IMG/VR virus record: IMGVR_UViG_3300021963_000633 | Coordinates: 1-24,358 of that record | Length of the DNA: 24,358 bases | Source of the DNA: a virus | Taxonomy: Duplodnaviria; Caudoviricetes | Direction: 5' to 3' (one strand) | Shown here: positions 9,079 to 24,358 of the stretch, one piece after another | Position numbering within the stretch: position 1 is the stretch's first letter | Layout: each line of letters opens with the position of its first letter | Made by a program: the position numbers and the translations under genes | Notes under the pieces: generated by a model | Told to the model about the DNA's origin: nothing | Database searches by the model: none | The model's input: only the letters and a program-made list of their open reading frames with translations

Positions 9079-12000
9079 ATGGCTGAAGTAAAAAATAGTT
9101 TCTTACAATCTAAAATGAATAAAGATCTAGATGATAGACTTATTCCAAACGGACAGTACAGAGACGCTTTAAATATATCTGTTGGTAAAGCAGAAGATAA
9201 AGATATTGGTGCTTTAGAAGGTGCTCTTGGTAATGAGTTTATGGTTGATACCAATAATCCAAACCTAGTGTGTATTGGTAAAGTGGCTGATAATCAGAAC
9301 AATAGAGTATTTCAATGGTGGACAGATTATACTGCGCCTCAAAACGACTTATATGCTTTACCAGATATAAACACTACTGTTGACATGAGAATAACTATGT
9401 ATGTTCCAAATGGTTCATCTGGTACATTAACAACTCTTGTTTCTGGTAGTTTTTTAAATCTAGCAACAAATTATCCTTTTAGAGTAATAGGAGCAAATGT
9501 ATTAGAGAATTTATTATTTTGGACTGATAATAGAAATCAACCTAGAAAAATAAATATAGAGACTGCTATAAATAATAATAATTATTATACAGAAGAAGTT
9601 CAAATATCTGTTGCTAAATATTCTCCAGTAACACCAATGAGTGTTTACTCTGTTGTTCCAGTAACTACTACATCAGTAGGAGTAATACCAACTAGTCCAA
9701 CTGGAAATCCACAATCAATATCGTTTAATGTTTCTAGTTTAGATGCTGCTAAATTAAGTTTAGGAATGCAACTATTGTATCCTTCTGTAGTGCCTACTAA
9801 CAACTTAGACGTAATAGACTATGCTGTTATAACAAAGATATCTGGAACAAATATAACGGTATCAATACCACAAAGATCACCGGCTGTTAGTTTACCTTCT
9901 GGAAGTGCGTTAACTTTCTACGGAACAACAATGTCTAATCAAGCAGATAACCCTAATTGGTCAGGAGATCCAAATTACCTTAAAGATAAATTTGTAAGAT
10001 TTAGTTATAGATATAAATTTGATGATGGTGAATATTCATTAATGGCACCGTTTACTCAGATTATGTTTATACCTAATCAGAATGGTTATTTCTTGAATGG
10101 AGACGAACAAGACGCGTATAGAAGTACCGTTGTTACTTGGTTCGAAAACTATATAAACAATATAGTATTACATGTTGAATTACCAGATACTGGAAACAAT
10201 ATTAGTAGTTCTTATAAAATTGCAAGTATAGACATACTTTACAAAGAATCTGATTCAAACGCTGTTCAAGTTGTAGAAACTGTTTCGCTTAATCAAATAG
10301 CAACTGTAGCAGGTAACTCTTCAGATTACTATTATACATATAAATCTCAAAAACCATATAAAACATTACCAGAAGCTCAAACAGTTAGAGTTTATGACAA
10401 AGTTCCAATTAGAGCAAGAGCTCAGGAGATTTCTGGAAATAGAGTTATATATGGTAACTATATAAATCAAAACACACCACCTGCTAGTTTAGATTATAAC
10501 CTAGCAATAATACAAAAACAACCACCTTATAGTTCTTGGGTAGAATATCCAAATCATACTTTAAAACAAAACAGAAATTATCAAGCTGGTTTTATTTTAG
10601 CAGATAAATTCGGAAGACAATCTTCTGTTATTTTATCATCTAACGATTTAACTGTTACTTCTGGTGGAACTACTTTTGTTGGTTCTACTATATACTCTCC
10701 TTATTTCACTGATGCAAATAACCTCGATGTTAAAGATTGGAGAGGTAATACATTAGCTTTAATACTTAACACGCCAATAGTTTCTAGCATTAATCAAGGA
10801 GCAGGAACTCCTGGTTTATATGCTGTTGTAGATGGTATAGATAATAATACAAATGGATTTCAAATAACAGGAACAGGATTAGTAACTGGTAATACTTTTA
10901 CATGTAATCTAGCTGCGTCTCCTGCACAAAGAAATTATCCAGAGGTTGGTAATTATCTAAGAGGAAAATATAAAGACTATGTTAAAGTTTTAACCGTTGC
11001 TACTTTTGGTTCTCCAACTGTTACTGGTTTTGTTTTAACAGCGGATGGCGATATAAGCGAAAATTACAATCTAACAGGAGTAAGTCCTGATATAAAATAT
11101 TCTTATAAGATAAATCCAATGGGTTGGTATTCATATAAGATAGTCGTTAGACAACAACAACAAGAATACTATAATGTTTATTTACCGGGCATGTTAAATG
11201 GTTACCCTATGTACCAAACAACAACGGCTCCTGGTACTTGGCCTACTGCTGCCGCTAATCCAACTATATTCCCTACAGATGAAGTTGACAAGACTGCTCA
11301 CGTGGTATTAATAAACGACAACATAAATAAAATACCTAGAGACTTAACAGAGGTTGGTCCAGATCAAAAACAATACAGAAGTAGTGTTCAACTGTTCGGT
11401 AGAGTAGAAAACGCCTTAGATTCAACGATAACGTTTAATAGACAGTATTATCCGGCAAGAAAACCAGATGTAGCTTCGACTATATCTTCTGCTAATGATT
11501 TAAAGTTTTTACCTACTAACGATCCAAATAACTTATATGGAACTGCTTCTAATAACTTTTATCAATTAAGTACTACTCCTATAATCGCTAGAATTTCTAC
11601 GGTTAATGAGATAGGTGTAATAGGAAGTACAACAACTCCTGGAACTCCAGATACGGACTTCACTATGAATCCTTTTTTAGGCGTTTATGAAACTTCTCCA
11701 TTTATTTCTTCTCTTGAGATATTTTGGGAAACTTCATCTGCTGGTCTTATATCTGATTTAAACGAAGCGGTGTTAAAGGTTTATAACTCTGCTGTTAATT
11801 TTGATTTATTCACTTATACACATAATGAATTTCAAGATCCAAATGGGGTTGGTACAACACCTGGCGCTAGTAATTCTAGATTCATAACTAACAATTTTCA
11901 ACCAGTTAACGCTTCTGGAGCTTTAATGACTACTGTTAACAACATAGTTATGACTGTTAAGGATTTGACTGGAGCTGATAGAACTAGTAATTTTGAATTA

Positions 12001-13227
12001 GTGTACCAAACAGGTTATAAATACGCTATTAGAATAAACAATGCATTTAATTATTTAACAGATGCAGCGACAAAGGAAAGATATATATTTACTTTCAATA
12101 TATTTGATGTTACTAATGGAAATAGTGTTATAACTAAAACCGGAAGTTTAAGTAATTCCACGCCTGTTATTACAGCTCCAACATTACCACTTCCTGTTCC
12201 ACCATTATATAGTGTTATACTATCGAATCCTCCTGTTTTGGGTTCTGTGTATCAATGTACTGGTACGAATGGAGCACCTAGTGTAGTTGGTAATCCTAGT
12301 TTTAATCAACAACAATTAAGATGGAGTATATTAAATACTTCTACTCCTAGTGATTATGCTTCTTATTTTAGTATAAACGAAACTACTGGAACTATTAGTT
12401 TGTTAGATGTAACTATACCGAATAACTTACCTTATACATTGGATATTAGGTTAACAGACACGTATGATTTTGCTACTAATTCAAACGGAGTTGGTTCATT
12501 ATATGCTGATACTCAGTTGAGTATAATAAGAGCAATAGGCGAGAATAATTGTGAGGAATGGGATTGTGTTGTAAGTGATGGTATACATCCTACTTTATTT
12601 ATTAGAAACACAACATCTGGTTATTTTAATTTCTGGAGAGAATTTTTTCCTGGTGAAACTATAGATGTAGCAAATACATCTGTTAGAGTTGTAAGTTATG
12701 ATTCTTTAAGTGAAACCTATAGTGCTCCTTATAGAAGTATAACAGGAGGTGATTCTACTTACTTTTATCAAGGTTGGTTAGATTTTACTAATGCAGAAGA
12801 TTTTGAAGCCAGTTTTAACGTTCAAAATAGTCAAGGTATAGAAGATGATCAATCACCAACTGTTAGCCTGCATGTAGTTGGTACTATAAGAGTTTTACCT
12901 TCTGGAAGATATATAAACGTTGATTTTATAAGTCAAAACACTGCTTACGATTCAATGACTAGAACATCAAGTGCTAGCACGTGTAACGTAGGATCACCTA
13001 AATACTTGTCTCCTTTATTAACAGGTTGGCAATTAACTAATTCTGGTTCAACACCAATAACTTGGAACGCTTTAGTAAATTCTGGAACTGGTTATTCCGT
13101 AATAGGAGGTAATTTAAATCCAGGAGCCACAGTAGCTAGTACTGGACTTGGAGGTACATATCCATGTATACACGTTGACTCTTTAACTTACGCAGACGGA
13201 GGAGTAGCAACCTTTGCTACGTGTTAA
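9079..13227 (+). CDS. Tail stabilization / muzzle protein, N-terminal part (P22 gp10-like beta-propeller) with Ig/cadherin-like C-terminal additions
   Basis: 1382 aa; starts SKMNKDLDDRLIPNGQYRDALNI; LLFWTDNRNQPRKINI, FSYRYKFDDGEYS and GNRVIYGNY; T/S/N/G-rich. Confidence 0.8.
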   Translation: MAEVKNSFLQSKMNKDLDDRLIPNGQYRDALNISVGKAEDKDIGALEGALGNEFMVDTNNPNLVCIGKVADNQNNRVFQWWTDYTAPQNDLYALPDINTTVDMRITMYVPNGSSGTLTTLVSGSFLNLATNYPFRVIGANVLENLLFWTDNRNQPRKINIETAINNNNYYTEEVQISVAKYSPVTPMSVYSVVPVTTTSVGVIPTSPTGNPQSISFNVSSLDAAKLSLGMQLLYPSVVPTNNLDVIDYAVITKISGTNITVSIPQRSPAVSLPSGSALTFYGTTMSNQADNPNWSGDPNYLKDKFVRFSYRYKFDDGEYSLMAPFTQIMFIPNQNGYFLNGDEQDAYRSTVVTWFENYINNIVLHVELPDTGNNISSSYKIASIDILYKESDSNAVQVVETVSLNQIATVAGNSSDYYYTYKSQKPYKTLPEAQTVRVYDKVPIRARAQEISGNRVIYGNYINQNTPPASLDYNLAIIQKQPPYSSWVEYPNHTLKQNRNYQAGFILADKFGRQSSVILSSNDLTVTSGGTTFVGSTIYSPYFTDANNLDVKDWRGNTLALILNTPIVSSINQGAGTPGLYAVVDGIDNNTNGFQITGTGLVTGNTFTCNLAASPAQRNYPEVGNYLRGKYKDYVKVLTVATFGSPTVTGFVLTADGDISENYNLTGVSPDIKYSYKINPMGWYSYKIVVRQQQQEYYNVYLPGMLNGYPMYQTTTAPGTWPTAAANPTIFPTDEVDKTAHVVLINDNINKIPRDLTEVGPDQKQYRSSVQLFGRVENALDSTITFNRQYYPARKPDVASTISSANDLKFLPTNDPNNLYGTASNNFYQLSTTPIIARISTVNEIGVIGSTTTPGTPDTDFTMNPFLGVYETSPFISSLEIFWETSSAGLISDLNEAVLKVYNSAVNFDLFTYTHNEFQDPNGVGTTPGASNSRFITNNFQPVNASGALMTTVNNIVMTVKDLTGADRTSNFELVYQTGYKYAIRINNAFNYLTDAATKERYIFTFNIFDVTNGNSVITKTGSLSNSTPVITAPTLPLPVPPLYSVILSNPPVLGSVYQCTGTNGAPSVVGNPSFNQQQLRWSILNTSTPSDYASYFSINETTGTISLLDVTIPNNLPYTLDIRLTDTYDFATNSNGVGSLYADTQLSIIRAIGENNCEEWDCVVSDGIHPTLFIRNTTSGYFNFWREFFPGETIDVANTSVRVVSYDSLSETYSAPYRSITGGDSTYFYQGWLDFTNAEDFEASFNVQNSQGIEDDQSPTVSLHVVGTIRVLPSGRYINVDFISQNTAYDSMTRTSSASTCNVGSPKYLSPLLTGWQLTNSGSTPITWNALVNSGTGYSVIGGNLNPGATVASTGLGGTYPCIHVDSLTYADGGVATFATC

Positions 13228-13260
13228 GTAATAATATAAAAAAACAAGTGATAAATAAAT

Positions 13261-14871
13261 ATGGCAGCAACTATAGAAATAAAATATTATAATTCATTTT
13301 GGTTAAAGAAAATGGATAGTATAACCAAAGTAGCTCCAACTGTAGTTGCTGGAATACTTACGGTTGGAACTGGTTCTATAGGAGACAACTACTTAAAAGT
13401 TGCTTTGGCTTCTGCTCCAGATTCTACAGTATACGGTCCAGGTCAAAGAATAAGTTGGACTATAGCAGGAAACAATTATGAAAACATAGTTACATACGTT
13501 ACTTCAGACGCTACTTATACTTACTTTACGTTATACAACAATTTAACAGTTGGAGTACCTTCTGGAACTACTATAAACTTAGGTAAAATAATTGATTACG
13601 ATTTCTTACCTAGTCAATATATTAGTGCTACTGGTGGATCGTCACAAGATTGGTATATAGAAGAAGCTAGAATAAGAGGCGGTTATAATAATACAACTGT
13701 TGATTTTGGAGTTAAAGCTTACACTGTAGAAGAAAACAATCAGAGAGAAGATCTAACTAATAGATTAATATATTCTGGCGTGTTTAATTCTAGAACAGGT
13801 ATAAACAATACTAATCAATTCTCTGTAGCAGAAGATATAACTAGAACATTAGATCCAGCGAATGGTTCAATACAAAAACTATACGCTGAGGACACTAACT
13901 TAACTGTTTTCCAAGAGTTGAAAGTTAGTAGGGCTTTAATAGATAAAAGCGCTGTGTATGCGGCTGATGGTATGCCTTTAACAACTTCTGGAATAGACGT
14001 AATAGGTCAAGTTCAAAGTTACGCAGGTAATTACGGTATAGGTAAGCATCCAGAGAGTTTCGCCGTATATGGATATAGAAAATACTTTGTAGACACATAT
14101 CAGAATGTTGTTTTAAGATTATCTCAAGACGGTATAACTGAAATATCTGATTATGGTATGTTTGATTACTTCAGAGATAAACTATCAGATAGTAACCTAC
14201 AAAATGGTTATATATACGGTATTTGGGATATACACAACAAACAATATGTAGTGTCTATACAACCTACAAAAACTGTTTCAAATGTTTTAGTAATAGATGA
14301 AGCAAATAGTGTTACAGCAAGTTTTGATGAGGATAGTTCAGGATGGACTAGTTTTCATAGTTACATACCAAATGATGGTGTGAGTTTAAGAAATTACTTA
14401 TACACATTTAAAAATGGTTCTATATGGAAACATTATTCAGAATTAGTTAATAAAGCTAATTTCTATGGAATTCAATATCCATCAACAGTTTCTATTGTTT
14501 TCAATCCTCAAGTGTCACAATCTAAGTCGTTCTTGACTATTAATTATGAAGGAACATATAATTGGAGATTATCTAACTTCTCTACTGAAACAGACATATC
14601 GGTTCCAGTTAGTCAATACTTTTCAGCATCGACATTAGTGGGATTGGAAGACCAACTTTTTGAAAATAGATTTAAAAAGAAAGAAAATAAATATTTTGCA
14701 AATATATTAAATACTTCTTTACCTGGTGAAAATGAAATAATATGGGGTCAACCTTATATAACTGGAGTTAAAGGGTTTTACGCTAACGCAACATTACAAT
14801 GTGATCATAACAATAATGACAAATCAGAGTTATTTGCTGTATCTGCAGAATACATAGAATCATCATATTAA
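13261..14871 (+). CDS. Tail stabilization / muzzle protein, C-terminal part
   Basis: 536 aa; IEEARIRGGYN, LIYSGVFNSRTGINNTNQFS, YAGNYGIGKHPESFA, LRLSQDGITEIS, GWTSFHSY and FKKKENKYFANI. Confidence 0.75.
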   Translation: MAATIEIKYYNSFWLKKMDSITKVAPTVVAGILTVGTGSIGDNYLKVALASAPDSTVYGPGQRISWTIAGNNYENIVTYVTSDATYTYFTLYNNLTVGVPSGTTINLGKIIDYDFLPSQYISATGGSSQDWYIEEARIRGGYNNTTVDFGVKAYTVEENNQREDLTNRLIYSGVFNSRTGINNTNQFSVAEDITRTLDPANGSIQKLYAEDTNLTVFQELKVSRALIDKSAVYAADGMPLTTSGIDVIGQVQSYAGNYGIGKHPESFAVYGYRKYFVDTYQNVVLRLSQDGITEISDYGMFDYFRDKLSDSNLQNGYIYGIWDIHNKQYVVSIQPTKTVSNVLVIDEANSVTASFDEDSSGWTSFHSYIPNDGVSLRNYLYTFKNGSIWKHYSELVNKANFYGIQYPSTVSIVFNPQVSQSKSFLTINYEGTYNWRLSNFSTETDISVPVSQYFSASTLVGLEDQLFENRFKKKENKYFANILNTSLPGENEIIWGQPYITGVKGFYANATLQCDHNNNDKSELFAVSAEYIESSY

Positions 14872-14886
14872 ATAAAATTAAATTAA

Positions 14887-15297
14887 ATGGAATTAAAAAT
14901 AAGAAATTTACAGGAATCAGATTGGGATACATTAGTTAGTTGGTGGATGTCTAGAGAAGAATGGCAAATACACCCAGCTAAAGAGATGTTACCAATGAAT
15001 GGAATCGGCGGACTAATGGTTGAATGTGAAGATCAACCAGTAGTAGCTGGTTTCTTATATTTGACTAATTCTAAGATAGCTTGGATGGAATGGATAATAT
15101 CTGATAAAAACTATAAAAAAAGAAATAAAAAAGAAGCTATAGAATTATTAATAAATTCATTAGAACAAGTAGCTAAAAGTACAGGTGCTGAAATGATATT
15201 TAGTGTAAGTCAAAATAAGAGTTTGTTAAAAACACATGAAAACTTAGGTTATACCATAGATAAAACACCTTCACATGAAATTTCAAAAAAAATATAA
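14887..15297 (+). CDS. GNAT-fold acetyltransferase-like protein (position equivalent to T7 gp13 / P22 gp14)
   Basis: 136 aa; IRNLQESDWDTL helix, VVAGFLY strand, WIISDKNYK, LLINSLEQVAKSTGA and LLKTHENLGY follow GNAT topology. Confidence 0.7.
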   Translation: MELKIRNLQESDWDTLVSWWMSREEWQIHPAKEMLPMNGIGGLMVECEDQPVVAGFLYLTNSKIAWMEWIISDKNYKKRNKKEAIELLINSLEQVAKSTGAEMIFSVSQNKSLLKTHENLGYTIDKTPSHEISKKI

Positions 15298-15300
15298 ATT

Positions 15301-16239
15301 ATGGCAGTAGTAACAACTATAGCGGCAGTAGGCGTAGGATTATCCGTAGCTGGATCAGCAATAGCCGCTAATCAAGCAAAGCAAGCAGCAAATGGATTTG
15401 CTAACGAAGCTGAATGGAAAGAGTGGCAAATAGCTGATTTAGAAGCTAATAGACAGGCAATTCCAAATCCTTATGCAAACATGAGAGATCTTAGTACTTT
15501 AGCTAAAGATTTATCTGGAGATATGAGCAACCCTTATGCTAGTTTAGGTGTGTCTACACAAGCTGCTAAAATGCAAATTGAAGAATCAGATAAAGCATTG
15601 GCAAACACTTTAGATACATTAAGAGCTACTGGAGCAAGCGCTGGTGGAGCAACTGCTTTAGCACAAGCCGCTTTAGACAGTAAAAAAGGTGTTGCTGCTA
15701 GTATTGAAAAACAAGAAGCTGATAATGAAAAATTAAAAGCACAAGGTCAAGCAGAACTTCAAGCTGCTAAATTAGAAGAAAAGAGAAGAATACAAAATGC
15801 TCAATACCAAGAGGGAGTAAGATTACAAACAGCAGAAGCTGAAGGTATTAAGTTTAAATATGGAGAACAAGAATCTAGAGATATTGCTAAATTAAATAGA
15901 TTATCTGGTCAACAAGCTCAATTTAAAGCTAATCAAGCATCTGCTCAAAACGCACAGAGTAACGCTATTGGTGCGGGTATTGGAGCAGTTGGTAATATAG
16001 TTGGTGGAGCAATAGGTGCTTTCTCTGATAGAAGATTAAAGAAAAATATAAGTAAAATAGGAGTATCAGCAAAAGGTATAAATATTTATTCTTTTGAATA
16101 CATAGACGAAAGATTTGGCAAAGGACTTTGGCAAGGAGTTATGTCAGATGAGATTCCAGACGAAGCAGTTATAAGACATGAAGATGGTTTTGATTTAGTA
16201 GACTATTCTTTAATTGATGTTGAATTTAAACAACTATAA
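15301..16239 (+). CDS. Putative ejection/internal virion protein with C-terminal peptidase S74 intramolecular chaperone domain
   Basis: Hydrophobic Ala/Gly N-terminus, Q/A coiled coil, glycine zipper AIGAGIGAVGNIVGGAIGAF, then SDRRLKKNI...IYSFEY...GVMSDE...VDYSLI. Confidence 0.75.
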   Translation: MAVVTTIAAVGVGLSVAGSAIAANQAKQAANGFANEAEWKEWQIADLEANRQAIPNPYANMRDLSTLAKDLSGDMSNPYASLGVSTQAAKMQIEESDKALANTLDTLRATGASAGGATALAQAALDSKKGVAASIEKQEADNEKLKAQGQAELQAAKLEEKRRIQNAQYQEGVRLQTAEAEGIKFKYGEQESRDIAKLNRLSGQQAQFKANQASAQNAQSNAIGAGIGAVGNIVGGAIGAFSDRRLKKNISKIGVSAKGINIYSFEYIDERFGKGLWQGVMSDEIPDEAVIRHEDGFDLVDYSLIDVEFKQL

Positions 16240-16242
16240 GAT

Positions 16243-18039
16243 ATGGGATATTATGAAAATCCTCCTATAATAAGAAACAACGGAGGGAACGATGCTGCTT
16301 CTTATATAATGCAAGCTGGTAACAGTATTTCTCAAGCACTTATTGGTATTGGAGAAAGAAGAAGAGCAGAAGAAAAAAAACAGAGATTAAGTCTAGAAAA
16401 ACTTCAACAAAGAAAGAACAAACTAGACATGTATTATAACGGTAGATTATCTGATTGGAAATCTAAGCAATCGGAAATTAATGGAGAAGCTGATAAACAG
16501 ATACAAGAAATAATACAACAAGATATATTCACAGCAGCTGATAATAGTTTACTTTTGGAAAACGAAAGTGATCCTAAAAAAAGATCTGAATATTTGAAAT
16601 CAGTAAGAAATGCAAATTTATTACTAGAAAATTCAGGTGTATTTGCTAAAAATCTAACTGGTCAAGTTGCTACTTATAGATTAAAAACACCAGCTAATAA
16701 ACTAGGTGAACCTGGTGGTTATGTTGTTAACGGATCAAATTCTAAAGAAATACTAGATAACACGTCTGTGTTAGAAGTTCTTGGAGGCAATTCAGCAAAT
16801 GTAAAAGACTCTAAAATATCTGTTAAAAAGAATAGTAACGGAGATGGTTTATTACTTATTGTTTCTGGATATCATAAAGAAGATGGTGAGTATTTTGAAA
16901 AAGAAATAGACTCTAATGAGTTTAATAAGTCAGATGAAGAATCTAACAATGGTTTGTTAATACCTGTAGAAACTAACAACTCTTTTATAGAGAATGCTAA
17001 AAAAACTTACTTTGATGAAAAAGGGAATAATATATTACCTGGTTTTTTAAGCGAAACAAGAGAAACATTTGATTTGGACAGTAAAGGTAGTTCTGATGGT
17101 AAAACTCAAGATGTATATCAAATACGAAATGGTCAAAGAATTCAAATAGAAGCGATAAGAAAAGGAGTACAAGATCAAGCTGAAACATCGGCGAATGGTC
17201 TACTTGCTACATATGCTACTAAACCAGCTAAAATGAGAGCTTTTATAGATTACACTTTGAAAAAAGGAGTTGGAGTTTATGATAAGGAATTTGCTGGAAA
17301 AGATCCTAAAGAACAATTAGATATTCTAAAGAACTGGATGACTGACGATGCTATGAATTCTATGACTAAAAACCTAGAAAAAACAACAACTAAAGACGGT
17401 GTTATATACTGGAATCCTAGTCAAGATATTAGTAAAAAAGAAAAATCTAGCGAACCTAGTTCTGGAGGAGGTAAAGATCAAGACAAAGAAACATATACTC
17501 CTTATCAGTCTGAATATTACGATAAAATAATGGCAGGTTCTGGAGCAAGTAGAAACAGAGCATATAAACCAGGTCAAGTAGATTTTAGAGATAGAAGGAA
17601 CTTAGTTGATAATGTTAATAATTTAGCTGGAGAAACAGATAAATATATAACTAAAGAAGATTTATTTGAAATGTATAAAAAATCACCTTATAAATCTGGA
17701 AGTTTTGACACTGGTTTAACTATTCAAGAAGCTTATGATAAAGGTAAAATAAAAACAAATCCTTCTACTTTATTTAAACAATCATTTGGAGATGGTAAAG
17801 TATATATGAAAAAAGGAGAAGGTGCTTATAAACCAGTAAAAGGATATAACTTTAAGAAAGCTGAAGACAGAGTTAAATTTGCTTTAGATCAAACAGCTGG
17901 AGAAGGTGAAAAGAAACAACTAGGAGGAAAAGTTCAAGAAGCTAGAATGCAAGATTTAAGAACTTGGACAGAAGCAAATCCTAGAAAACCTGGAGAATCA
18001 TTAGAAGCATATAAAATAAGATACGAGAGATCAAATTAA
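16243..18039 (+). CDS. Putative ejection/cargo protein, hydrophilic
   Basis: 598 aa, K/E/N/D-rich, starts MGYYENP, lies between the small ejection-like protein and the giant cargo gene. Function is inferred from position only. Confidence 0.55.
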   Translation: MGYYENPPIIRNNGGNDAASYIMQAGNSISQALIGIGERRRAEEKKQRLSLEKLQQRKNKLDMYYNGRLSDWKSKQSEINGEADKQIQEIIQQDIFTAADNSLLLENESDPKKRSEYLKSVRNANLLLENSGVFAKNLTGQVATYRLKTPANKLGEPGGYVVNGSNSKEILDNTSVLEVLGGNSANVKDSKISVKKNSNGDGLLLIVSGYHKEDGEYFEKEIDSNEFNKSDEESNNGLLIPVETNNSFIENAKKTYFDEKGNNILPGFLSETRETFDLDSKGSSDGKTQDVYQIRNGQRIQIEAIRKGVQDQAETSANGLLATYATKPAKMRAFIDYTLKKGVGVYDKEFAGKDPKEQLDILKNWMTDDAMNSMTKNLEKTTTKDGVIYWNPSQDISKKEKSSEPSSGGGKDQDKETYTPYQSEYYDKIMAGSGASRNRAYKPGQVDFRDRRNLVDNVNNLAGETDKYITKEDLFEMYKKSPYKSGSFDTGLTIQEAYDKGKIKTNPSTLFKQSFGDGKVYMKKGEGAYKPVKGYNFKKAEDRVKFALDQTAGEGEKKQLGGKVQEARMQDLRTWTEANPRKPGESLEAYKIRYERSN

Positions 18040-18049
18040 ATAATAAATT

Positions 18050-21000
18050 ATGGAAGAGGTATATTCATTGTCAGACGGAACACAGGTAGATTTATCTAAC
18101 TACTCAGATTTCGAAAGAATTAATTTCTTAATGGAGAATCCAGGTGCAAAAAAGTTAAAAGGCGTTGCGAAGAGTGCGGGCGTGATGCCAAAAAAGAAAG
18201 CACAAGATACGGGATCCAAGCGGGTAAGTGGTTCTTCGGGTTCTCAAAAATATAGGTTAGCAAACGAAGATGATTTAGAGATAATGCAGAAAAGAGGAGA
18301 AGCTCCTCCTCCTTCTGCTTATCCTAAATCAAATGTAGATGTTAACAATATATATGGTAATAAAACTAACTTTAATAAAGATTACCAAGAATTAAAAGCA
18401 TATTTAGGTAAAGGAGACTACAAACAAAGATTAGAAACTTTACCAAAAGATAAAAAAACAAAAAGCACAAAAGATTTATATACTTTGAAACAAAACTCTA
18501 CTGAACATGTAGATAGTGTTAACGAGATAGCAAATCTTAAGAAAAAAATACAGGAAACAGATTCTGACTTAGAACATCCTTATTTATATTATTCTTCTAA
18601 AAACCAATGGGAAGGAGACGACTTTATAGATCAAAATTATAATAGATCAGAATTAGAAGATTTAGGCATTAATACAGAAGACTTTGATGGATACTTAAAT
18701 AAGAATGGATATAAACAGGATTATTTAGATAAGAAGCAAAGAGGTCTTTACGATGGAGAAGGTTCTAACTTCATGACTGGATACAACTATAAGTTAGCTG
18801 ATGAACTTGCTAAGAAACGTATGTTAAACATGTATATGGATAATATGCAACGTCGTGATTATACTAAGCAAGATTTAAACGAAGAAATAGAAGTAGTATC
18901 TGGTAAAAAGAAAGAAAAAGAAATAGTAAATAGATCTTTATTCGATCAAAATAAAACAATAGCTTACGTTGAAAAAAACTATCCAAATGTAACTCAAAAG
19001 TTAAAAGAGAGAGACATTGAAAACGCTAGGTTATATGAAGAATCTAAAAAAGGTTCATCTGACTTTTGGTCTTGGGATACTCCTGGAAAGATAGGTAAAG
19101 CTGGATGGAATGCTGTTGTAGATAGATTAGATCAAGTAAGTCCAGTTGTTTACGAAAAATTAGGAATGGAAGATACCGCAGAAGGTATTAGATTGAATGC
19201 AGAACAAACTCAATTATCTAGACCAGAAGAAAGAGGTTATGCTTACGCTTCTGGTAAATTAGTTAATTATGATGGTACTGATTACATAGTTGATTCTAAA
19301 GGACAAATATACGACAAAGACGCTAAGATTAGAGTAACTGACTTATTAAGTAAAAACAGTTATGAAAAAATATTAATTGATTCTAAAAACGCTCCATCAG
19401 ATTGGACTTTTAGTGGTCAAGGCGCGGCAACCCAAACAGCTAGTGTTATGGGTGATATGATTATTCAAGCTGCTTTAACTCGTGGGATTGGAGAGTTTGG
19501 CGCTATAGCCACAGAAACAAGATTAGCTTTGAATGGAGCTCAAAAAGCAAATAGATTTTCGTCCTTATTAAACGATACTTCTAGTGCGTTAAAAATGATA
19601 CCACTACAAAGAGCAGAAGGTTATTCTATGGTTGCTCAAGGTGCATTAGGTTATACACAAGGGTATGAAGAAACTTTAAAAGCAGCGAGAGATAATGGAA
19701 TAACAGATAAAGAAGCTTTTAAATTAGCTTCATCTGCTGCCCAAAGATTAGCTGTATTATATAGTTCTACAGGTGCTATAAACCCTCAGACTCAAGTTGC
19801 TGATAATTTGTTTGGTTCTAAGAACATAATAAAACAAGCTATCGATCAATATACTAAAAAAGGAGAGAAAGGTTTTGTACAATATTTAGACGATATAATT
19901 AAGAATGCACCTAAAAATGCTATTGAATTTGCAGAAGAAGGAGCGAAGGAAGTTGTTCAAGAAAACATACAACAAGTAGGTGAAATTGGAGCTAATAAAA
20001 TAACAAACGTTGAGGCTGGTAAAAAGATAATGAATGATACCATGTCTGCTGACGATTTTGTTAATACCTCTATTTTATCATTTATATCTTCTGGTTTAAT
20101 ATCTAAGGCTAAATTACCTACTTTTAATTCTTCAGATCAAGATGTAGATGATTTAGGTTCTTTAAGTACACTAGCTAAAAATAAAAAAGAGTTTACTAAA
20201 ATAATAGATGGTTTAGTTGATCAAAAAGTATTTACAATTGAAGAAGCAACTAACTTAAAGAAAGATGTAGATATTTACGCTGATAATGTAAATAAGTTAC
20301 CTAAAAATGTCTCTCCTAAATCAGCAATGCCGATTATGAAAGAATTAGATAAAGTAACTAAATTAGAAAATCAAAAACAATCTACAGATAAGGCTTTTCA
20401 TGATGAGATTGATCTACAGATAGAAGGTATTAGAAATAATGTAAAAGAAATATTTTACAAAGATCAATTAGAAGCTAAAAATAAATCTATAATAAAAGCT
20501 TTAGAAAAAGGTATTGTAAAAAATACAGAATTTAAGACTTTTAAAAACACTCAACAATTAGAAGAATATCTTGTAAATAATTACAACATGAAACCTAAAG
20601 ACGCTAAGTTTAACGCGGCTAATAAAGGTGTTTTTCTTAACTCACAATATTTAAATGATGTTTCTGAAGGAGGTGTTGAAATACCTGAAGGAAAGAAATT
20701 TATATTTATAAATGAAGAAATAGCTTCTAAAAGAGGTGATTTTTCTGTAGGTCAACATGAATTCTTACATGCTCTTATGCATGAGACTTTAAAAGACGAT
20801 CCTGAGGCAAAAAAACTACTAGGTACAGCTCTTACAAAAGAGTTAATGAAAGTAGATACTTTATTAAAAGCAGAAGGTAAAGAAGATGTAGTTGTACCAA
20901 AAGAGTATGCTCAAAAATTAGGAGCTTACAAAAGATTTTATGACGAACAGAATAACAATTTGTTCGATGAAATGGACGACTATTATAACGATTATAAGGA

Positions 21001-24000
21001 AGGTAAGATAACTAAAGAAGAGTACGATACTAAAAAATCTGAAATCCAAACAGAAATAGATAGTAACACTGGAGACATGTGGGAAGAAGCACTTAATTTA
21101 TACTCTGACGCTATTAGTCAAGGTTTAGTTAAGTACGACGAAGGAACAATGAATCGTTTAAAAGATACTATAAGACAAGTACTTCAATTCTTAGGAATAA
21201 AAGACGTAAAATTCGAAACAGGTAGAGATGTTTATAATTTCTTAAAAGACTACAATAACAGTGTTAATTCTGGAAATTGGGGTCTTGGCATGAGAAAAGT
21301 AGGAAAAGGTAGTGTTGAAATAAATAAAGAATCTTTAAGAAAAGAAACAGGAGTTAAAGAACCTGTAAAGAAAAAAGAAGAACAAACAACAGTATCTAAA
21401 CCTAAATTCTCTTTATCAGAAAGAAAATCTTCTGAAGAAATTAAGAAGGATGTAAATAAAAATTACAACAAAGAACTATGGAGTAGTGGAAGTAATTCAA
21501 AAGATGAAAATCCAGCTATCAATAGAGTAATGTTTGATATATTAAATGAATACGAATATATAATTAAAGGTAAAGCAAAAGGATTGGGATATGTAAATCT
21601 ACCTGATTTTAGTGAAATGGATTTCATTAGTGAAACTTCACTAGCTATGATACCTCTTATTCGTAACTTTAATAAAGAGTTCTTTCAAAAAAGAGAAGAA
21701 TACAAAAAGGAACTAGAAGCAAAAGGTTTAGATCCTAAAAGCGAAGAGTTTAAAGAGAAACTAGAGGTTCAAGACGAAAAAGGTTATCAAGGTAAAAAAG
21801 GCATCGTAAAAGAAAACAAAGATCTAAACGCTTATATAAATTCGCAATTAGGTAATAAAATGAAAGATGCTCTTAAATCTGGAAATGTAACCTCACAATT
21901 GTTTACAGACGACATACAAGGAGAAGGATTTAAGGAAACTAGAGTATTAGCTGATTATGCTGGAGATACTGGAGAAGAATCTGACTTTTTAGATGAATCG
22001 GATAGTGTATTCAATGCTGAACAAGATTTTGAAGAAGAACAAAGTAATCTTGCTGTTTTATTGAGCGATCCAGTGTTTAACTTTGTAGATGAACAAGGTA
22101 AACCTATAAACATTGAAACAGTACCTTTTGGTGGTTTCTTTGTTACAGAAGCCTCAGATCCAACCGTTGCTGCTAATATAAAACTAAAAACAGAAACAGA
22201 TCCTGCTAAAATAGCAGATTTGAATAGACAATTAAAAGAATTAGAAAGAGGTTTAGAATTACAATCTAAAAAAGATAGAACTCCAGAAGAAAATGAAGAA
22301 TTAAAAAAATTAAAATCTTTTAAATCTTATGATCTTTCAACTGGAATGATGGTAAACACGTTTGAAGCTCTTTCTGTTCAAGATACGCCAGCTAAAATCA
22401 TTTCTGATGAGGTTGGACGTGAGATATTAAGATCTCCAAACATTGAAACTCTAGAATATAGAAACTTCAAAGAAAGATTATCATTTTTATCTAAGACTAT
22501 GGCAAGAAGAATGACTTTCAAGAACGGTCCAGAAATAGAGTCTTTAATGTACAATCAATGGAAGTTATTATACGATGTTATAAATAATCCTGTTGATCAA
22601 GTTACTGGAGAATCTAGTTATGCTTCTAAAAAATTACCACCTAGATTAAAAGAAACAGACGAAAAAGGTGATATCAAAAAAATAGAAGATATAAGTAGAG
22701 TAAAATTCTTACAATCTTACTATGGAATAGACGATGCCACTAGAATTATAAAAACTTATGGTGGTGAAAATGCCAGTGAAGAATTAAAACAATTTGAAGA
22801 TTCTGAATTAAGTGAAAAGGATGGTGGTAAATTAAGACCTACAACTTATTTCGATAGAAGAACAGCTTTAATGGAATTGTTTGGTGATGTTTTAGTTTTA
22901 CAAGAAGCTAGAAGATTAATTAGACAACCTGAATTCTTAGATAGAGTTGCAGAACGAAACGTTAATTTGGCAAATGATTTAAAGAACGAAGTTATTAGAG
23001 CTAAAGTTCTTGATGATATGGCAAAAGGTAAGAGTAGTGTTGTTAAATTTAGTTTAGCAGAAGAAGAAAATGGTAGATTATCTAGTTTCTTAGAAGGACT
23101 TCCTTTTACTGAACAATGGACAGTTGCAAGAGATATAGATAACGCTATTAAAAACGCTAAAATTGCTGATGGAACTAAAGTAACATTTAAAGTACCAAGT
23201 AGATCTAAATTCTCAGATAAACAAACAGCTTACTTCTTAATACAGAAAGTAGCAGATGGTTATAATGACTTTGAGTTTAAAGTTAAGAAAAATGCAAATG
23301 GAACTTTAACTAAACAAGTTTTAGAAGCTCTTGATTATAAGTCAAAGAAATACCAAGAAATCGTAGAGAAGAATAATAATATCGAGAAAACAATAAACGA
23401 TATTATAGAAGAAAACAAAGGAGTTAAATCAGAAGAAACATTCTCTCCTGAAACTGCTAAGAATTTAGGTAAGAACGTTGGTAAACATAAAATTTATTTA
23501 CCACCTGAAGACGAAGACTTCGAAGGACTGCTATACACGTTAGCAAGCGCTAAAGGTGTTAAAGGTGAGGAACAACTTGAGTTTCTTAGAAACACATTGT
23601 TAAAACCATATAGTGATGCAATGCTTAACTTAATGAAAGCTAGGCAAACAATGTATAAAGACTGGACTGACTTAATAAACAAGAAACACAAAGGAATAAG
23701 TAAAATACTTAAACAAGATTCTGGTTATGGCGGTTACTTGTATGATCAAGCAGTTAGGGTTTACTTATGGAAAAAAGCTGGTTATGAAATACCTGGTTTA
23801 GATAAAAAAGATATATTTAACTTAGTTGAAAAAGTAAGAACTGATCCTAAATTAAGAAAGTTCGCTGATGACGTTTCTTTACTTTCTAAACAAGCTAATG
23901 GTTGGACAGAACCTGGTCATAATTGGGGATTTGGTTCAGTAGTTGGAGATATTAATAATATTATATCAAAATCAAATAGAACTAAATACTTAGAACCTTG

Positions 24001-24358
24001 GACTAAAAATATTGAAAAAGCTTTCTCTAAAGAAAACATGAGCAAGATAGAAGCTATATACGGTAGAAAATACGTAACAGCTTTAAAAAATGCTCTAGAT
24101 AGAATGAAAACCGGAAGTAATAGAATAGAAGGTTCTAACGATAGCTTTTTAAATTGGTTAAACGGAGCTACAGCGGTAACAATGTTTGCTAATATGCGTT
24201 CTGCTTTACTTCAAACTTTAGGTGCTGTCAATTTTATCAACACGTCTGATAATAACATATTAAAAGCAGGAGCAGCGTTATTAAACGTACCTCAGTATAC
24301 TAAAGACTTTTTTACAATATGGAATTCAGATTACCTTAGAGATAGAAGATCTGGCTTA
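18050..24358 (+). CDS. Giant virion cargo / polyvalent protein (at least 2103 aa, 3'-truncated) with zincin metallopeptidase domain
   Basis: ATG at 18050 (AAATT-ATG). The frame reads MEEVYSLSDG... to ...WNSDYLRDRRSGL at the window end and I found no stop. Has Gly/Ala hydrophobic segments near 19400-19780, EEGAKEVVQE, HEFLH at 20756-20770 and a distal WEE at 21080-21088. Confidence 0.88.
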   Translation, partial: MEEVYSLSDGTQVDLSNYSDFERINFLMENPGAKKLKGVAKSAGVMPKKKAQDTGSKRVSGSSGSQKYRLANEDDLEIMQKRGEAPPPSAYPKSNVDVNNIYGNKTNFNKDYQELKAYLGKGDYKQRLETLPKDKKTKSTKDLYTLKQNSTEHVDSVNEIANLKKKIQETDSDLEHPYLYYSSKNQWEGDDFIDQNYNRSELEDLGINTEDFDGYLNKNGYKQDYLDKKQRGLYDGEGSNFMTGYNYKLADELAKKRMLNMYMDNMQRRDYTKQDLNEEIEVVSGKKKEKEIVNRSLFDQNKTIAYVEKNYPNVTQKLKERDIENARLYEESKKGSSDFWSWDTPGKIGKAGWNAVVDRLDQVSPVVYEKLGMEDTAEGIRLNAEQTQLSRPEERGYAYASGKLVNYDGTDYIVDSKGQIYDKDAKIRVTDLLSKNSYEKILIDSKNAPSDWTFSGQGAATQTASVMGDMIIQAALTRGIGEFGAIATETRLALNGAQKANRFSSLLNDTSSALKMIPLQRAEGYSMVAQGALGYTQGYEETLKAARDNGITDKEAFKLASSAAQRLAVLYSSTGAINPQTQVADNLFGSKNIIKQAIDQYTKKGEKGFVQYLDDIIKNAPKNAIEFAEEGAKEVVQENIQQVGEIGANKITNVEAGKKIMNDTMSADDFVNTSILSFISSGLISKAKLPTFNSSDQDVDDLGSLSTLAKNKKEFTKIIDGLVDQKVFTIEEATNLKKDVDIYADNVNKLPKNVSPKSAMPIMKELDKVTKLENQKQSTDKAFHDEIDLQIEGIRNNVKEIFYKDQLEAKNKSIIKALEKGIVKNTEFKTFKNTQQLEEYLVNNYNMKPKDAKFNAANKGVFLNSQYLNDVSEGGVEIPEGKKFIFINEEIASKRGDFSVGQHEFLHALMHETLKDDPEAKKLLGTALTKELMKVDTLLKAEGKEDVVVPKEYAQKLGAYKRFYDEQNNNLFDEMDDYYNDYKEGKITKEEYDTKKSEIQTEIDSNTGDMWEEALNLYSDAISQGLVKYDEGTMNRLKDTIRQVLQFLGIKDVKFETGRDVYNFLKDYNNSVNSGNWGLGMRKVGKGSVEINKESLRKETGVKEPVKKKEEQTTVSKPKFSLSERKSSEEIKKDVNKNYNKELWSSGSNSKDENPAINRVMFDILNEYEYIIKGKAKGLGYVNLPDFSEMDFISETSLAMIPLIRNFNKEFFQKREEYKKELEAKGLDPKSEEFKEKLEVQDEKGYQGKKGIVKENKDLNAYINSQLGNKMKDALKSGNVTSQLFTDDIQGEGFKETRVLADYAGDTGEESDFLDESDSVFNAEQDFEEEQSNLAVLLSDPVFNFVDEQGKPINIETVPFGGFFVTEASDPTVAANIKLKTETDPAKIADLNRQLKELERGLELQSKKDRTPEENEELKKLKSFKSYDLSTGMMVNTFEALSVQDTPAKIISDEVGREILRSPNIETLEYRNFKERLSFLSKTMARRMTFKNGPEIESLMYNQWKLLYDVINNPVDQVTGESSYASKKLPPRLKETDEKGDIKKIEDISRVKFLQSYYGIDDATRIIKTYGGENASEELKQFEDSELSEKDGGKLRPTTYFDRRTALMELFGDVLVLQEARRLIRQPEFLDRVAERNVNLANDLKNEVIRAKVLDDMAKGKSSVVKFSLAEEENGRLSSFLEGLPFTEQWTVARDIDNAIKNAKIADGTKVTFKVPSRSKFSDKQTAYFLIQKVADGYNDFEFKVKKNANGTLTKQVLEALDYKSKKYQEIVEKNNNIEKTINDIIEENKGVKSEETFSPETAKNLGKNVGKHKIYLPPEDEDFEGLLYTLASAKGVKGEEQLEFLRNTLLKPYSDAMLNLMKARQTMYKDWTDLINKKHKGISKILKQDSGYGGYLYDQAVRVYLWKKAGYEIPGLDKKDIFNLVEKVRTDPKLRKFADDVSLLSKQANGWTEPGHNWGFGSVVGDINNIISKSNRTKYLEPWTKNIEKAFSKENMSKIEAIYGRKYVTALKNALDRMKTGSNRIEGSNDSFLNWLNGATAVTMFANMRSALLQTLGAVNFINTSDNNILKAGAALLNVPQYTKDFFTIWNSDYLRDRRSGL
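18148..18203 (+). other. Candidate programmed -1 ribosomal frameshift element
   Basis: In-phase A_AAA_AAG (18148-18154), 6-nt spacer, stem GGCGTTGCG(18161-69)/CGTGATGCC(18181-89), loop GTGC complementary to GCAC at 18200-03. A second in-phase A_AAA_AAG sits at 18190-96. Confidence 0.65.

Follow-up and report, generated by a model that had tools for sequence, protein, structure and literature searches.

The 24,358-nt stretch analysed here (IMG/VR record IMGVR_UViG_3300021963_000633; 'the window') ends in the gene for a giant, ejection-protein-like phage protein, and our subject is a predicted −1 frameshift near the start of that gene. Taken as a whole, we hold with good confidence that a slippery heptamer and a pseudoknot at codon 35 give rise to a 68-residue protein with a β-hairpin tail, which is likely to be an assembly adaptor for the giant protein. 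Considered separately, and judged from sequence comparison, it is very probable that the shift takes place and that its product is functional. The elements concerned are as follows.

18050..24358, + strand: giant protein gene, more than 2103 amino acids (aa), running off the contig; third gene of an ejection-protein-like module
18050..18154, + strand: N-terminal mini-domain, 35 codons, common to the giant protein and the predicted trans-frame product, ending at the slip site
18148..18154, + strand: slippery heptamer A_AAA_AAG, likely the functional shift site (codons 33–35, GCA AAA AAG), chosen by an automated scan for slip site plus pseudoknot
18155..18160, + strand: spacer, 6 nt
18161..18189, + strand: pseudoknot stem 1 with its 11-nt loop; 18161-69 pairs with 18181-89 (9 bp)
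18174..18203, + strand: pseudoknot stem 2, formed by loop bases GUGC (18174-77) and GCAC (18200-03)
18190-99, + strand: A-rich loop 3, containing a second in-phase A_AAA_AAG (18190-96)
18154..18255, + strand: −1-frame extension, 33 residues and the stop codon TAG (18253-55); basic, with two Cys codons (18166-68 and 18175-77)
18208..18243, + strand: conserved −1-frame tail motif YGIQAGKWFFGF, a predicted β-hairpin

A programmed −1 shift at this position had been proposed in an initial annotation of the window, and recomputation reproduced all of its coordinates, for the heptamers, the spacer, the stem, the loop pairing and the −1-frame stop. Stem 1 is the minimum free energy structure (−11.6 kcal/mol). 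The upstream −1-frame stop is a TAA at 18121, and 3′ of it there is no ATG, GTG or TTG, in agreement with the earlier view that the extension has no start codon of its own. The −1 frame stays open for 43 codons, and of 1007 such stretches in the open reading frames (ORFs) of the window only one is longer. The GC-rich island of rare codons described in the annotation was also recovered: positions 18161-18240 are the most GC-rich 80 nt of the contig (0.55, against a mean of 0.32), the GC3 of the region is 0.45 where the giant gene's own codon usage predicts 0.13, and the 0-frame codons used are rare in the window (CGG, for example, accounts for 1 of 271 Arg codons). Within this single window, two results tell against the proposal. 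The hairpin energy by itself is not significant (z-score −1.07 to −1.77), and in-frame A_AAA_AAG occurs three times in the window's 12 ORFs, where 2.67 are expected. Heptamer and hairpin being unremarkable within the window, their significance therefore rests on the relatives. These same two figures are what would favour a chance pattern in an A-rich genome, an idea that we find hardly credible, as it is refuted by conservation in relatives found independently of the motif.

Relatives were gathered through the 312-aa first gene of the module, without reference to the tail motif. Of the 41 loci obtained, four have no giant-gene start (L002, L014, L038 and L041) and one is a duplicate (L018, of L015); together with the window this leaves 37 distinct starts. 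The tail was scored with a profile trained on 108 separately found loci, from which one unrelated locus (L052) and two on the same contigs as others (L053 and L075, with L001 and L034) had been dropped. The motif is present in 29 of the 37 giant-gene starts, 28 of them scoring above the maximum of 1214 background blocks and one (L009) just below it. Its consensus in relatives is [RK]YGIx[IF]G[RK]WFFG[FI], with a stop soon after, and the profile matches once per locus in a six-frame scan. The 0-frame shadow of the tail is also detectable, in 74 of 120 giant-protein homologues compared with 25 of 1866 background blocks.

An automated scan for a slip motif with an H-type pseudoknot (score of at least 26) was positive at 28 of the 29 motif-bearing loci, at two of the eight others and at seven of 1254 background slip sites, which sustains the reading of the first heptamer as a programmed shift signal. 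The spacer was 5–7 nt in all 30 scored loci, with 4–8 nt allowed. The heptamer A_AAA_AAG is found at codon 35 in the window and eight close relatives, and elsewhere the site is G_GGA_AAG, G_GAA_AAG, G_GAU_UUU, A_ACU_UUU, A_AAU_UUU or A_GCA_AAG. The commonest site of the pseudoknot-class relatives, G_GGA_AAG (17/43), is the slip site of lambda G-T. The second A_AAA_AAG, to which the annotation had also given a role, is kept in 3 of 29 loci, lies in loop 3 and does not appear to be a functional feature. An upstream Shine–Dalgarno (SD)-like word was rejected as a functional feature on the same count: it occurs in 3 of 29 loci, window included, and an internal SD of the dnaX type is thus not a conserved part of the signal.

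The H-type pseudoknot, previously suggested as possible, was borne out by covariation. In an alignment of 20 sequences picked for equal stem and loop lengths (14 neighbour-anchored and 6 motif-selected), 92.9% of cells are paired and 9 of the 14 pairs have changed on both sides, a result that 0 of 500 shuffles reach; slid controls gave 17–49%. For stem 1 the figures are 95.6% of cells paired and 6 of 9 pairs changed on both sides, and for stem 2 they are 88% and 3 of 5, with matched variants such as GGAUGU/ACAUCC, GAUCC/GGAUC and GACCC/GGGUC. A covariance model of stem 1 matched the expected site in nine non-training loci of the 31 searched, with two off-site matches at E up to 1. A search of Rfam returned 11 weak matches, none near the gathering score and none to a frameshift family.

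Many relatives have an A9–A11 run at the slip position instead, a feature not mentioned in the initial annotation and absent from the window itself. Of the 108 motif-selected loci, 39 have a slip site with pseudoknot, 50 an A8–10 run and 4 both (93/108), the slip site lying 0–23 codons from the motif. All nine GenBank relatives examined (eight cultured phages and one metagenomic genome) have an A9–A11 run directly after the N-terminal domain, and in seven of the nine fetched regions it is the sole A/T run of nine or more. The A-run relatives include cultured Cellulophaga, Flavobacterium and Maribacter podoviruses. The run is also present in 9/9 further loci that reach the site (seven of them distinct; three of the 12 examined stop short of it). 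Since one added A gives the −1 frame, these runs likely reach it by RNA-polymerase slippage; ribosomal slippage on A_AAA_AAA may be the alternative at these loci. A conserved run of at least nine A residues in coding sequence, as expected for transcriptional slippage, is found in the A-run relatives only. In a tree of the anchor protein encoded by the 312-aa gene (47 rows after dropping L166, with several long branches), the A-run phages fall on one side of a well-supported branch. In the Elemo clade (L165:17861 and L173-L182) an A10 run is kept and the conserved −1 tail is of another type, F[IF]GWRKT..NWGFGIFCW; the hidden product thus appears to have split into sub-families. In Panino a single frame contains the tail motif twice in tandem, both copies being degenerate (L163:31740-31820). 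Ten cargo genes of crAss001 and phi14:2 contain no A-run of eight or more and, by eye, no such tail in the first 150 codons.

The giant gene is interrupted at an A9 run in five GenBank records, at the following positions.

phi13:2, L167:20166-20441
phi46:3, L168:15428-15748
phi19:3, L169:15802-16122
phi18:3, L170:5310-5633
Panino, L163:31575-31756

In the four Cellulophaga phage records the N-terminus is annotated as a separate small gene, and in Panino it is uncalled. The run is A10, and in frame, in Gundel_1, phi38:1 and Elemo. Panino is a podovirus that was sequenced on Nanopore (PMC11590407). Because Panino was sequenced in this way and Gundel_1 has A10 in frame, the five splits are probably under-called homopolymers; otherwise the giant protein itself would need a slip. 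We have not accepted them as proof of such a need.

The −1 frame shows the marks of protein-coding selection. No stop interrupts it between slip site and motif in any of the 29 loci (the slip site of L026 was chosen by hand), where resampling of synonymous 0-frame codons gives an expectation of 0.22 open loci. Over 53 close pairs, the −1 frame has 137 synonymous codon changes out of 331 (20% expected) and the 0 frame 51 out of 354 (25% expected), and amino-acid identity is 54% in the −1 frame versus 33% in the 0 frame. The third positions of Gly codons show all four bases, and there are W/Y swaps, each of which needs two base changes. We considered whether the conserved tail is instead an RNA or DNA element, a structure or protein-binding site that is untranslated in the −1 frame. 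The YGI and WFF codons do pair on paper, and there are subgroups whose YGI bases also serve as the 3′ side of stem 2. Neither candidate tail stem covaries, however, their pairing being at or nearly at shuffled values with third positions freely breaking pairs, and a tail RNA stem or UUCG hairpin was rejected for this reason. Codon-position entropies in the −1 frame (0.77/0.70/1.29), a slip-to-motif distance that ranges from 0 to 41 codons but is always in frame and stop-free, and the lack of an Rfam family at gathering score further make such an element very improbable. Given the synonymous changes in the −1 frame and the absence of RNA covariation, the tail is, on these comparisons, selected as protein, and the −1-frame YG..G.WFFG motif picked out in the annotation is conserved accordingly. 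The signature of a bacterial programmed −1 frameshift is thus present: a conserved in-phase motif, a 3′ structure 5–7 nt away, an open and selected −1 frame, and constrained 0-frame codons.

The motif-selected loci come from a DNA pattern for the tail, which returned 120 loci (about 270 stretches are estimated in IMG/VR). In 118/120 the motif lies at −1 relative to a long open frame, and in 117/120 there is an ATG 46–119 codons upstream. A profile search of 1.84 billion proteins gave four matches to the tail, of 69–112 aa, each with a giant-gene-type N-terminus and a C-terminal motif; a stand-alone tail gene was rejected on this basis. The motif is in frame in a further 5 of 12 homologues of the L043 product, that product included. 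Records with the tail in frame are nearly all singletons, in which a natural variant and an assembly indel are indistinguishable, and they are not counted as evidence of expression.

Several points weigh against a shift with a functional product. The frameshift, the transcript and the peptide are all predictions from sequence, and the slip-motif rankings used derive from Escherichia coli rather than from Bacteroidota. The limits on pseudoknot geometry were set after the foreground loci had been viewed, the covariation alignment was itself selected for geometry, and the loci of the synonymous test were chosen with the −1-frame profile, a bias in the test's favour. Fifteen of the 108 motif-selected loci have neither signal under the thresholds used. 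In eight of the nine GenBank relatives, Panino being the exception, the −1 tail is below the motif-profile threshold, yet aromatic and Gly-rich. The tail is also absent in 8 of the 37 starts and so dispensable in some lineages. The tail-less loci are scattered among the pseudoknot loci in the anchor-protein tree, a distribution suggestive of repeated loss, and the well-supported branches of the tree require at least three changes. L039:10339-10460, where the tail motif has degenerated beside a retained slip site and pseudoknot, may represent an intermediate of loss.

These absences, and L039 with its retained signal, would also suit an attenuator: the shift would then do no more than lower output of the giant protein, with the −1 product as waste or with its tail as a tag for degradation or termination. 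Slipping early and terminating soon afterwards would reduce the copy number of the giant protein, which fits a low-copy cargo. We nevertheless consider an attenuator improbable, given the strong amino-acid selection in the −1 frame, a frame that stays open for up to 41 codons to the motif though a stop is easily gained (0.22 of 29 expected open), and a stop placed 14–16 codons past the Tyr of the motif in 75 of 108 loci. Control of stoichiometry, one of the purposes originally offered for the shift, fails on its own to explain conservation of the tail.

The predicted small protein consists of the 35 shared residues and the 33-residue extension. The products predicted at the 29 loci range from 67 to 105 aa, and the tail is net positive in 27 of 29. 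An AlphaFold2 model of the mini-domain, made from an alignment, has a mean pLDDT of 91.5, with two strands (residues 4–6 and 12–14) and a helix (20–29); that the modelled domain ends at the slip site agrees with the idea, already in the initial annotation, that the two proteins share a 35-aa N-terminus. Neither the mini-domain nor the tail has a family in Pfam, PHROGs, PDB sequences or Rfam. In an AlphaFold2 model of a relative's naturally in-frame product, the N-terminus is helical, the linker disordered and the C-terminus a β-hairpin (strands 80–87 and 90–97) with pLDDT of about 67. Foldseek found no match to this model in PDB at E≤0.001, and the ESM Atlas offered only unnamed matches under 0.8, or nothing usable, for the tail and N-terminal domain.

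Two of the properties first ascribed to the product did not hold up. The CxxC is not a defining feature: a Cys pair is present in 16 of the 29 loci found through the neighbouring gene, in none of 54 with an A-run and in 11 of 54 others, three pseudoknot loci are entirely without Cys, and both Cys codons of the window's extension coincide with UGC triplets of stems 1 and 2. A metal-binding or redox CxxC microprotein was accordingly rejected. Nor is a 'membrane-seeking' tail supported, as the window's tail contains no transmembrane helix (best 19-residue hydropathy −0.31) and is a predicted β-hairpin. What stands of the first interpretation is the −1 shift, the pseudoknot, the selected −1-frame motif and the shared N-terminal domain, without the CxxC, the second heptamer or the affinity for membranes.

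It is nonetheless possible, if unlikely, that the shift is real and that the small protein acts through its basic aromatic hairpin at a membrane or host protein, in the ejection channel, in inhibition of an outer-membrane protein or in superinfection exclusion, rather than in loading cargo. The tail is aromatic, Gly-rich, C-terminal and mostly net positive, and it is encoded in the ejection module, whose crAss001 and T7 counterparts form membrane channels (PMC10172136). Apart from lacking a transmembrane segment, a protein of this kind leaves unexplained why the shift always comes just after a folded, swappable and shared N-terminal domain.

That position is more readily accommodated by an adaptor that loads or anchors the giant ejection or cargo protein, a role we hold tentatively and consider somewhat short of probable. 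Three points were counted in its favour: the N-terminal domain folds independently, its end coinciding with the slip site; different lineages have N-terminal domains unrelated to one another, with one small domain replacing another, whilst the tail is kept; and a cassette has been swapped between phi13:2 and phi18:3 (L167:20109-20315 versus L170:5284-5507). This cassette begins ∼18 codons before the end of the middle gene and extends as far as the A9 run, and the two phages are near-identical on both of its flanks. On this scheme, most ribosomes would translate the N-terminal domain, a low-complexity linker that is the shadow of the pseudoknot and tail, and then the giant cargo. Some would pause at the pseudoknot, slip −1 at codon 35 and terminate past the hairpin. 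The shared N-terminal domain would bind itself or the C-terminal tip of the middle ejection protein, since a freely swappable domain needs only partners that travel with it. The tail, kept while the N-terminal domains change, would have something conserved as its partner, and might dock on a conserved virion protein as lambda gpGT joins tape measure and tail tube. Less in keeping with the adaptor, co-variation between the middle protein's C-terminus and the N-terminal domain is weak (partial rho 0.10; 8/1000 permutations), and adjacency of the genes alone could cause it. Motifs common to middle C-termini and giant N-termini were seen by eye, but 1 of 1890 pairs reached the score cut-off and we do not claim them. 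More tentatively still, there may be a lineage-wide recoding switch at the 5′ end of giant podovirus ejection genes, yielding a dedicated adaptor microprotein that would parallel lambda gpG/gpGT in short-tailed phages. Such a switch would place a swappable docking domain on the cargo (0 frame) or on a hairpin anchor (−1 frame), with any new cargo loaded and dosed automatically and with pseudoknot and A-run exchanged between lineages.

The mechanism resembles several known ones. With E. coli dnaX (tau/gamma) it shares the A_AAA_AAG heptamer and a shift that yields a shorter product. In Thermus dnaX an A-run provides the transcriptional-slippage counterpart of the E. coli frameshift, and related genes there, as here, interchange a heptamer plus 3′ structure with an A-run. 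It differs from dnaX in having a pseudoknot as stimulator and no conserved SD-like sequence, in placing the shift at codon 35 of more than 2100 and in a −1 frame that adds a conserved tail. Like lambda gpG/gpGT, it concerns a phage morphogenesis gene with a −1 shift and products with a common N-terminus, and the trans-frame part of gpGT is described as binding a second virion protein (PMC5009743). The lambda G-T shift, however, belongs to long-tailed phages, sits in the final part of a small chaperone gene and gives the longer product, whereas here the lineage is short-tailed, the shift is at the 5′ end of a giant gene and the product is a microprotein. Membership among the lambda G-T tail assembly chaperones was rejected on gene order, PHROG matches and the short-tailed relatives (PMC11590407). 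As in IS3-family orfA/orfB, the motif classes follow the E. coli ranking A_AAG > U_UUY; IS3-family −1 signals combine a heptamer or tetramer with a hairpin or pseudoknot 5–8 nt downstream (PMC4066793), but here there is no transposase and the shift truncates instead of fusing to a long ORF. Frameshifting also diversifies virion proteins in the capsid and tail extensions of T7/T3 gene 10, A2 and Listeria phage, T7 being a podovirus, although these extensions are C-terminal, often Ig-like and at gene ends, and in the text available none is in an ejection or cargo gene (PMC5009743). The crassvirus cargo genes gp45/gp46/gp47 form a comparable small/middle/giant trio after the tail genes (PMC10172136), and polyvalent proteins with MPTase domains are giant proteins with HExxH (PMC5512222). 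The word 'frameshift' has 0 occurrences in the available portions of PMC10172136, PMC5512222, PMC11590407 and PMC8776804, and a search of full-text literature gave no report of recoding in these giant genes.

The contig as a whole is a phage morphogenesis region with terminase, portal, a probable scaffold, a likely major capsid protein, tail genes and a GNAT-like gene, 3′ of which lies the module with ORFs of 312 aa, 598 aa and the giant gene. The two further module genes are as follows.

15301..16239, + strand: small ejection-protein-like gene, 312 aa, the anchor for finding relatives
16243..18039, + strand: middle ejection-protein-like gene, 598 aa

The nearest named relatives of the likely capsid protein are Maribacter phage Panino, Elemovirus and Cellulophaga phages, all at <50% identity; because these are its relatives, Panino being a podovirus, the host is likely a member of the Bacteroidota and the tail short. 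The 312-aa protein matches phrog_6121, a virion structural protein (E 8.5e-13), and the trio is syntenic with gp120/121/123 of phi18:3, which were annotated from tandem mass spectrometry of virions. The giant protein, whose homologues reach ∼3600 aa, has no significant direct pairwise similarity to gp123 and is tied to it through relatives, by indirect BLAST links; synteny and this indirect homology make it a likely virion cargo or ejection protein. An HExxH motif at aa 903–907 (HEFLH, window 20756-20770) suggests a zincin-like MPTase domain as in polyvalent proteins, and it weakly matches the corresponding HExxH of the Elemo giant protein. The 3′ end of the 312-aa gene (window 16024-16116) encodes a weak Peptidase_S74 chaperone-like domain, below the Pfam cut-off, and many relatives of its product are ∼240 aa and apparently without it. 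The GNAT-like gene (window 14887-15297) lies between the tail genes and the ejection module, and MW202828 has an acetyltransferase-annotated gene at the matching position. A tail stabiliser-like protein (phrog_14478) occupies two genes in the window (9079-14871; 1382 and 536 aa) and a single gene in phi38:1, Elemo and Gundel_1.

The type of mechanism is already known, whilst its location and product, like the exchange of one slippage route for the other, appear to be undescribed. The finding bears on how short-tailed phages package and dose their large injected proteins, and it names a conserved, unannotated small protein that would come from the cargo gene itself. It also offers an account of the break in the giant gene that five GenBank records show here, homopolymer under-calling being probable. 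With several different slip motifs among them, the relatives form a large natural collection of covarying bacterial H-type frameshift pseudoknots, and they provide an example of two recoding mechanisms arriving at one frame. The lineage is widespread and has cultured members in phi38:1, phi18:3, Elemo and Panino, which makes the proposal directly testable.

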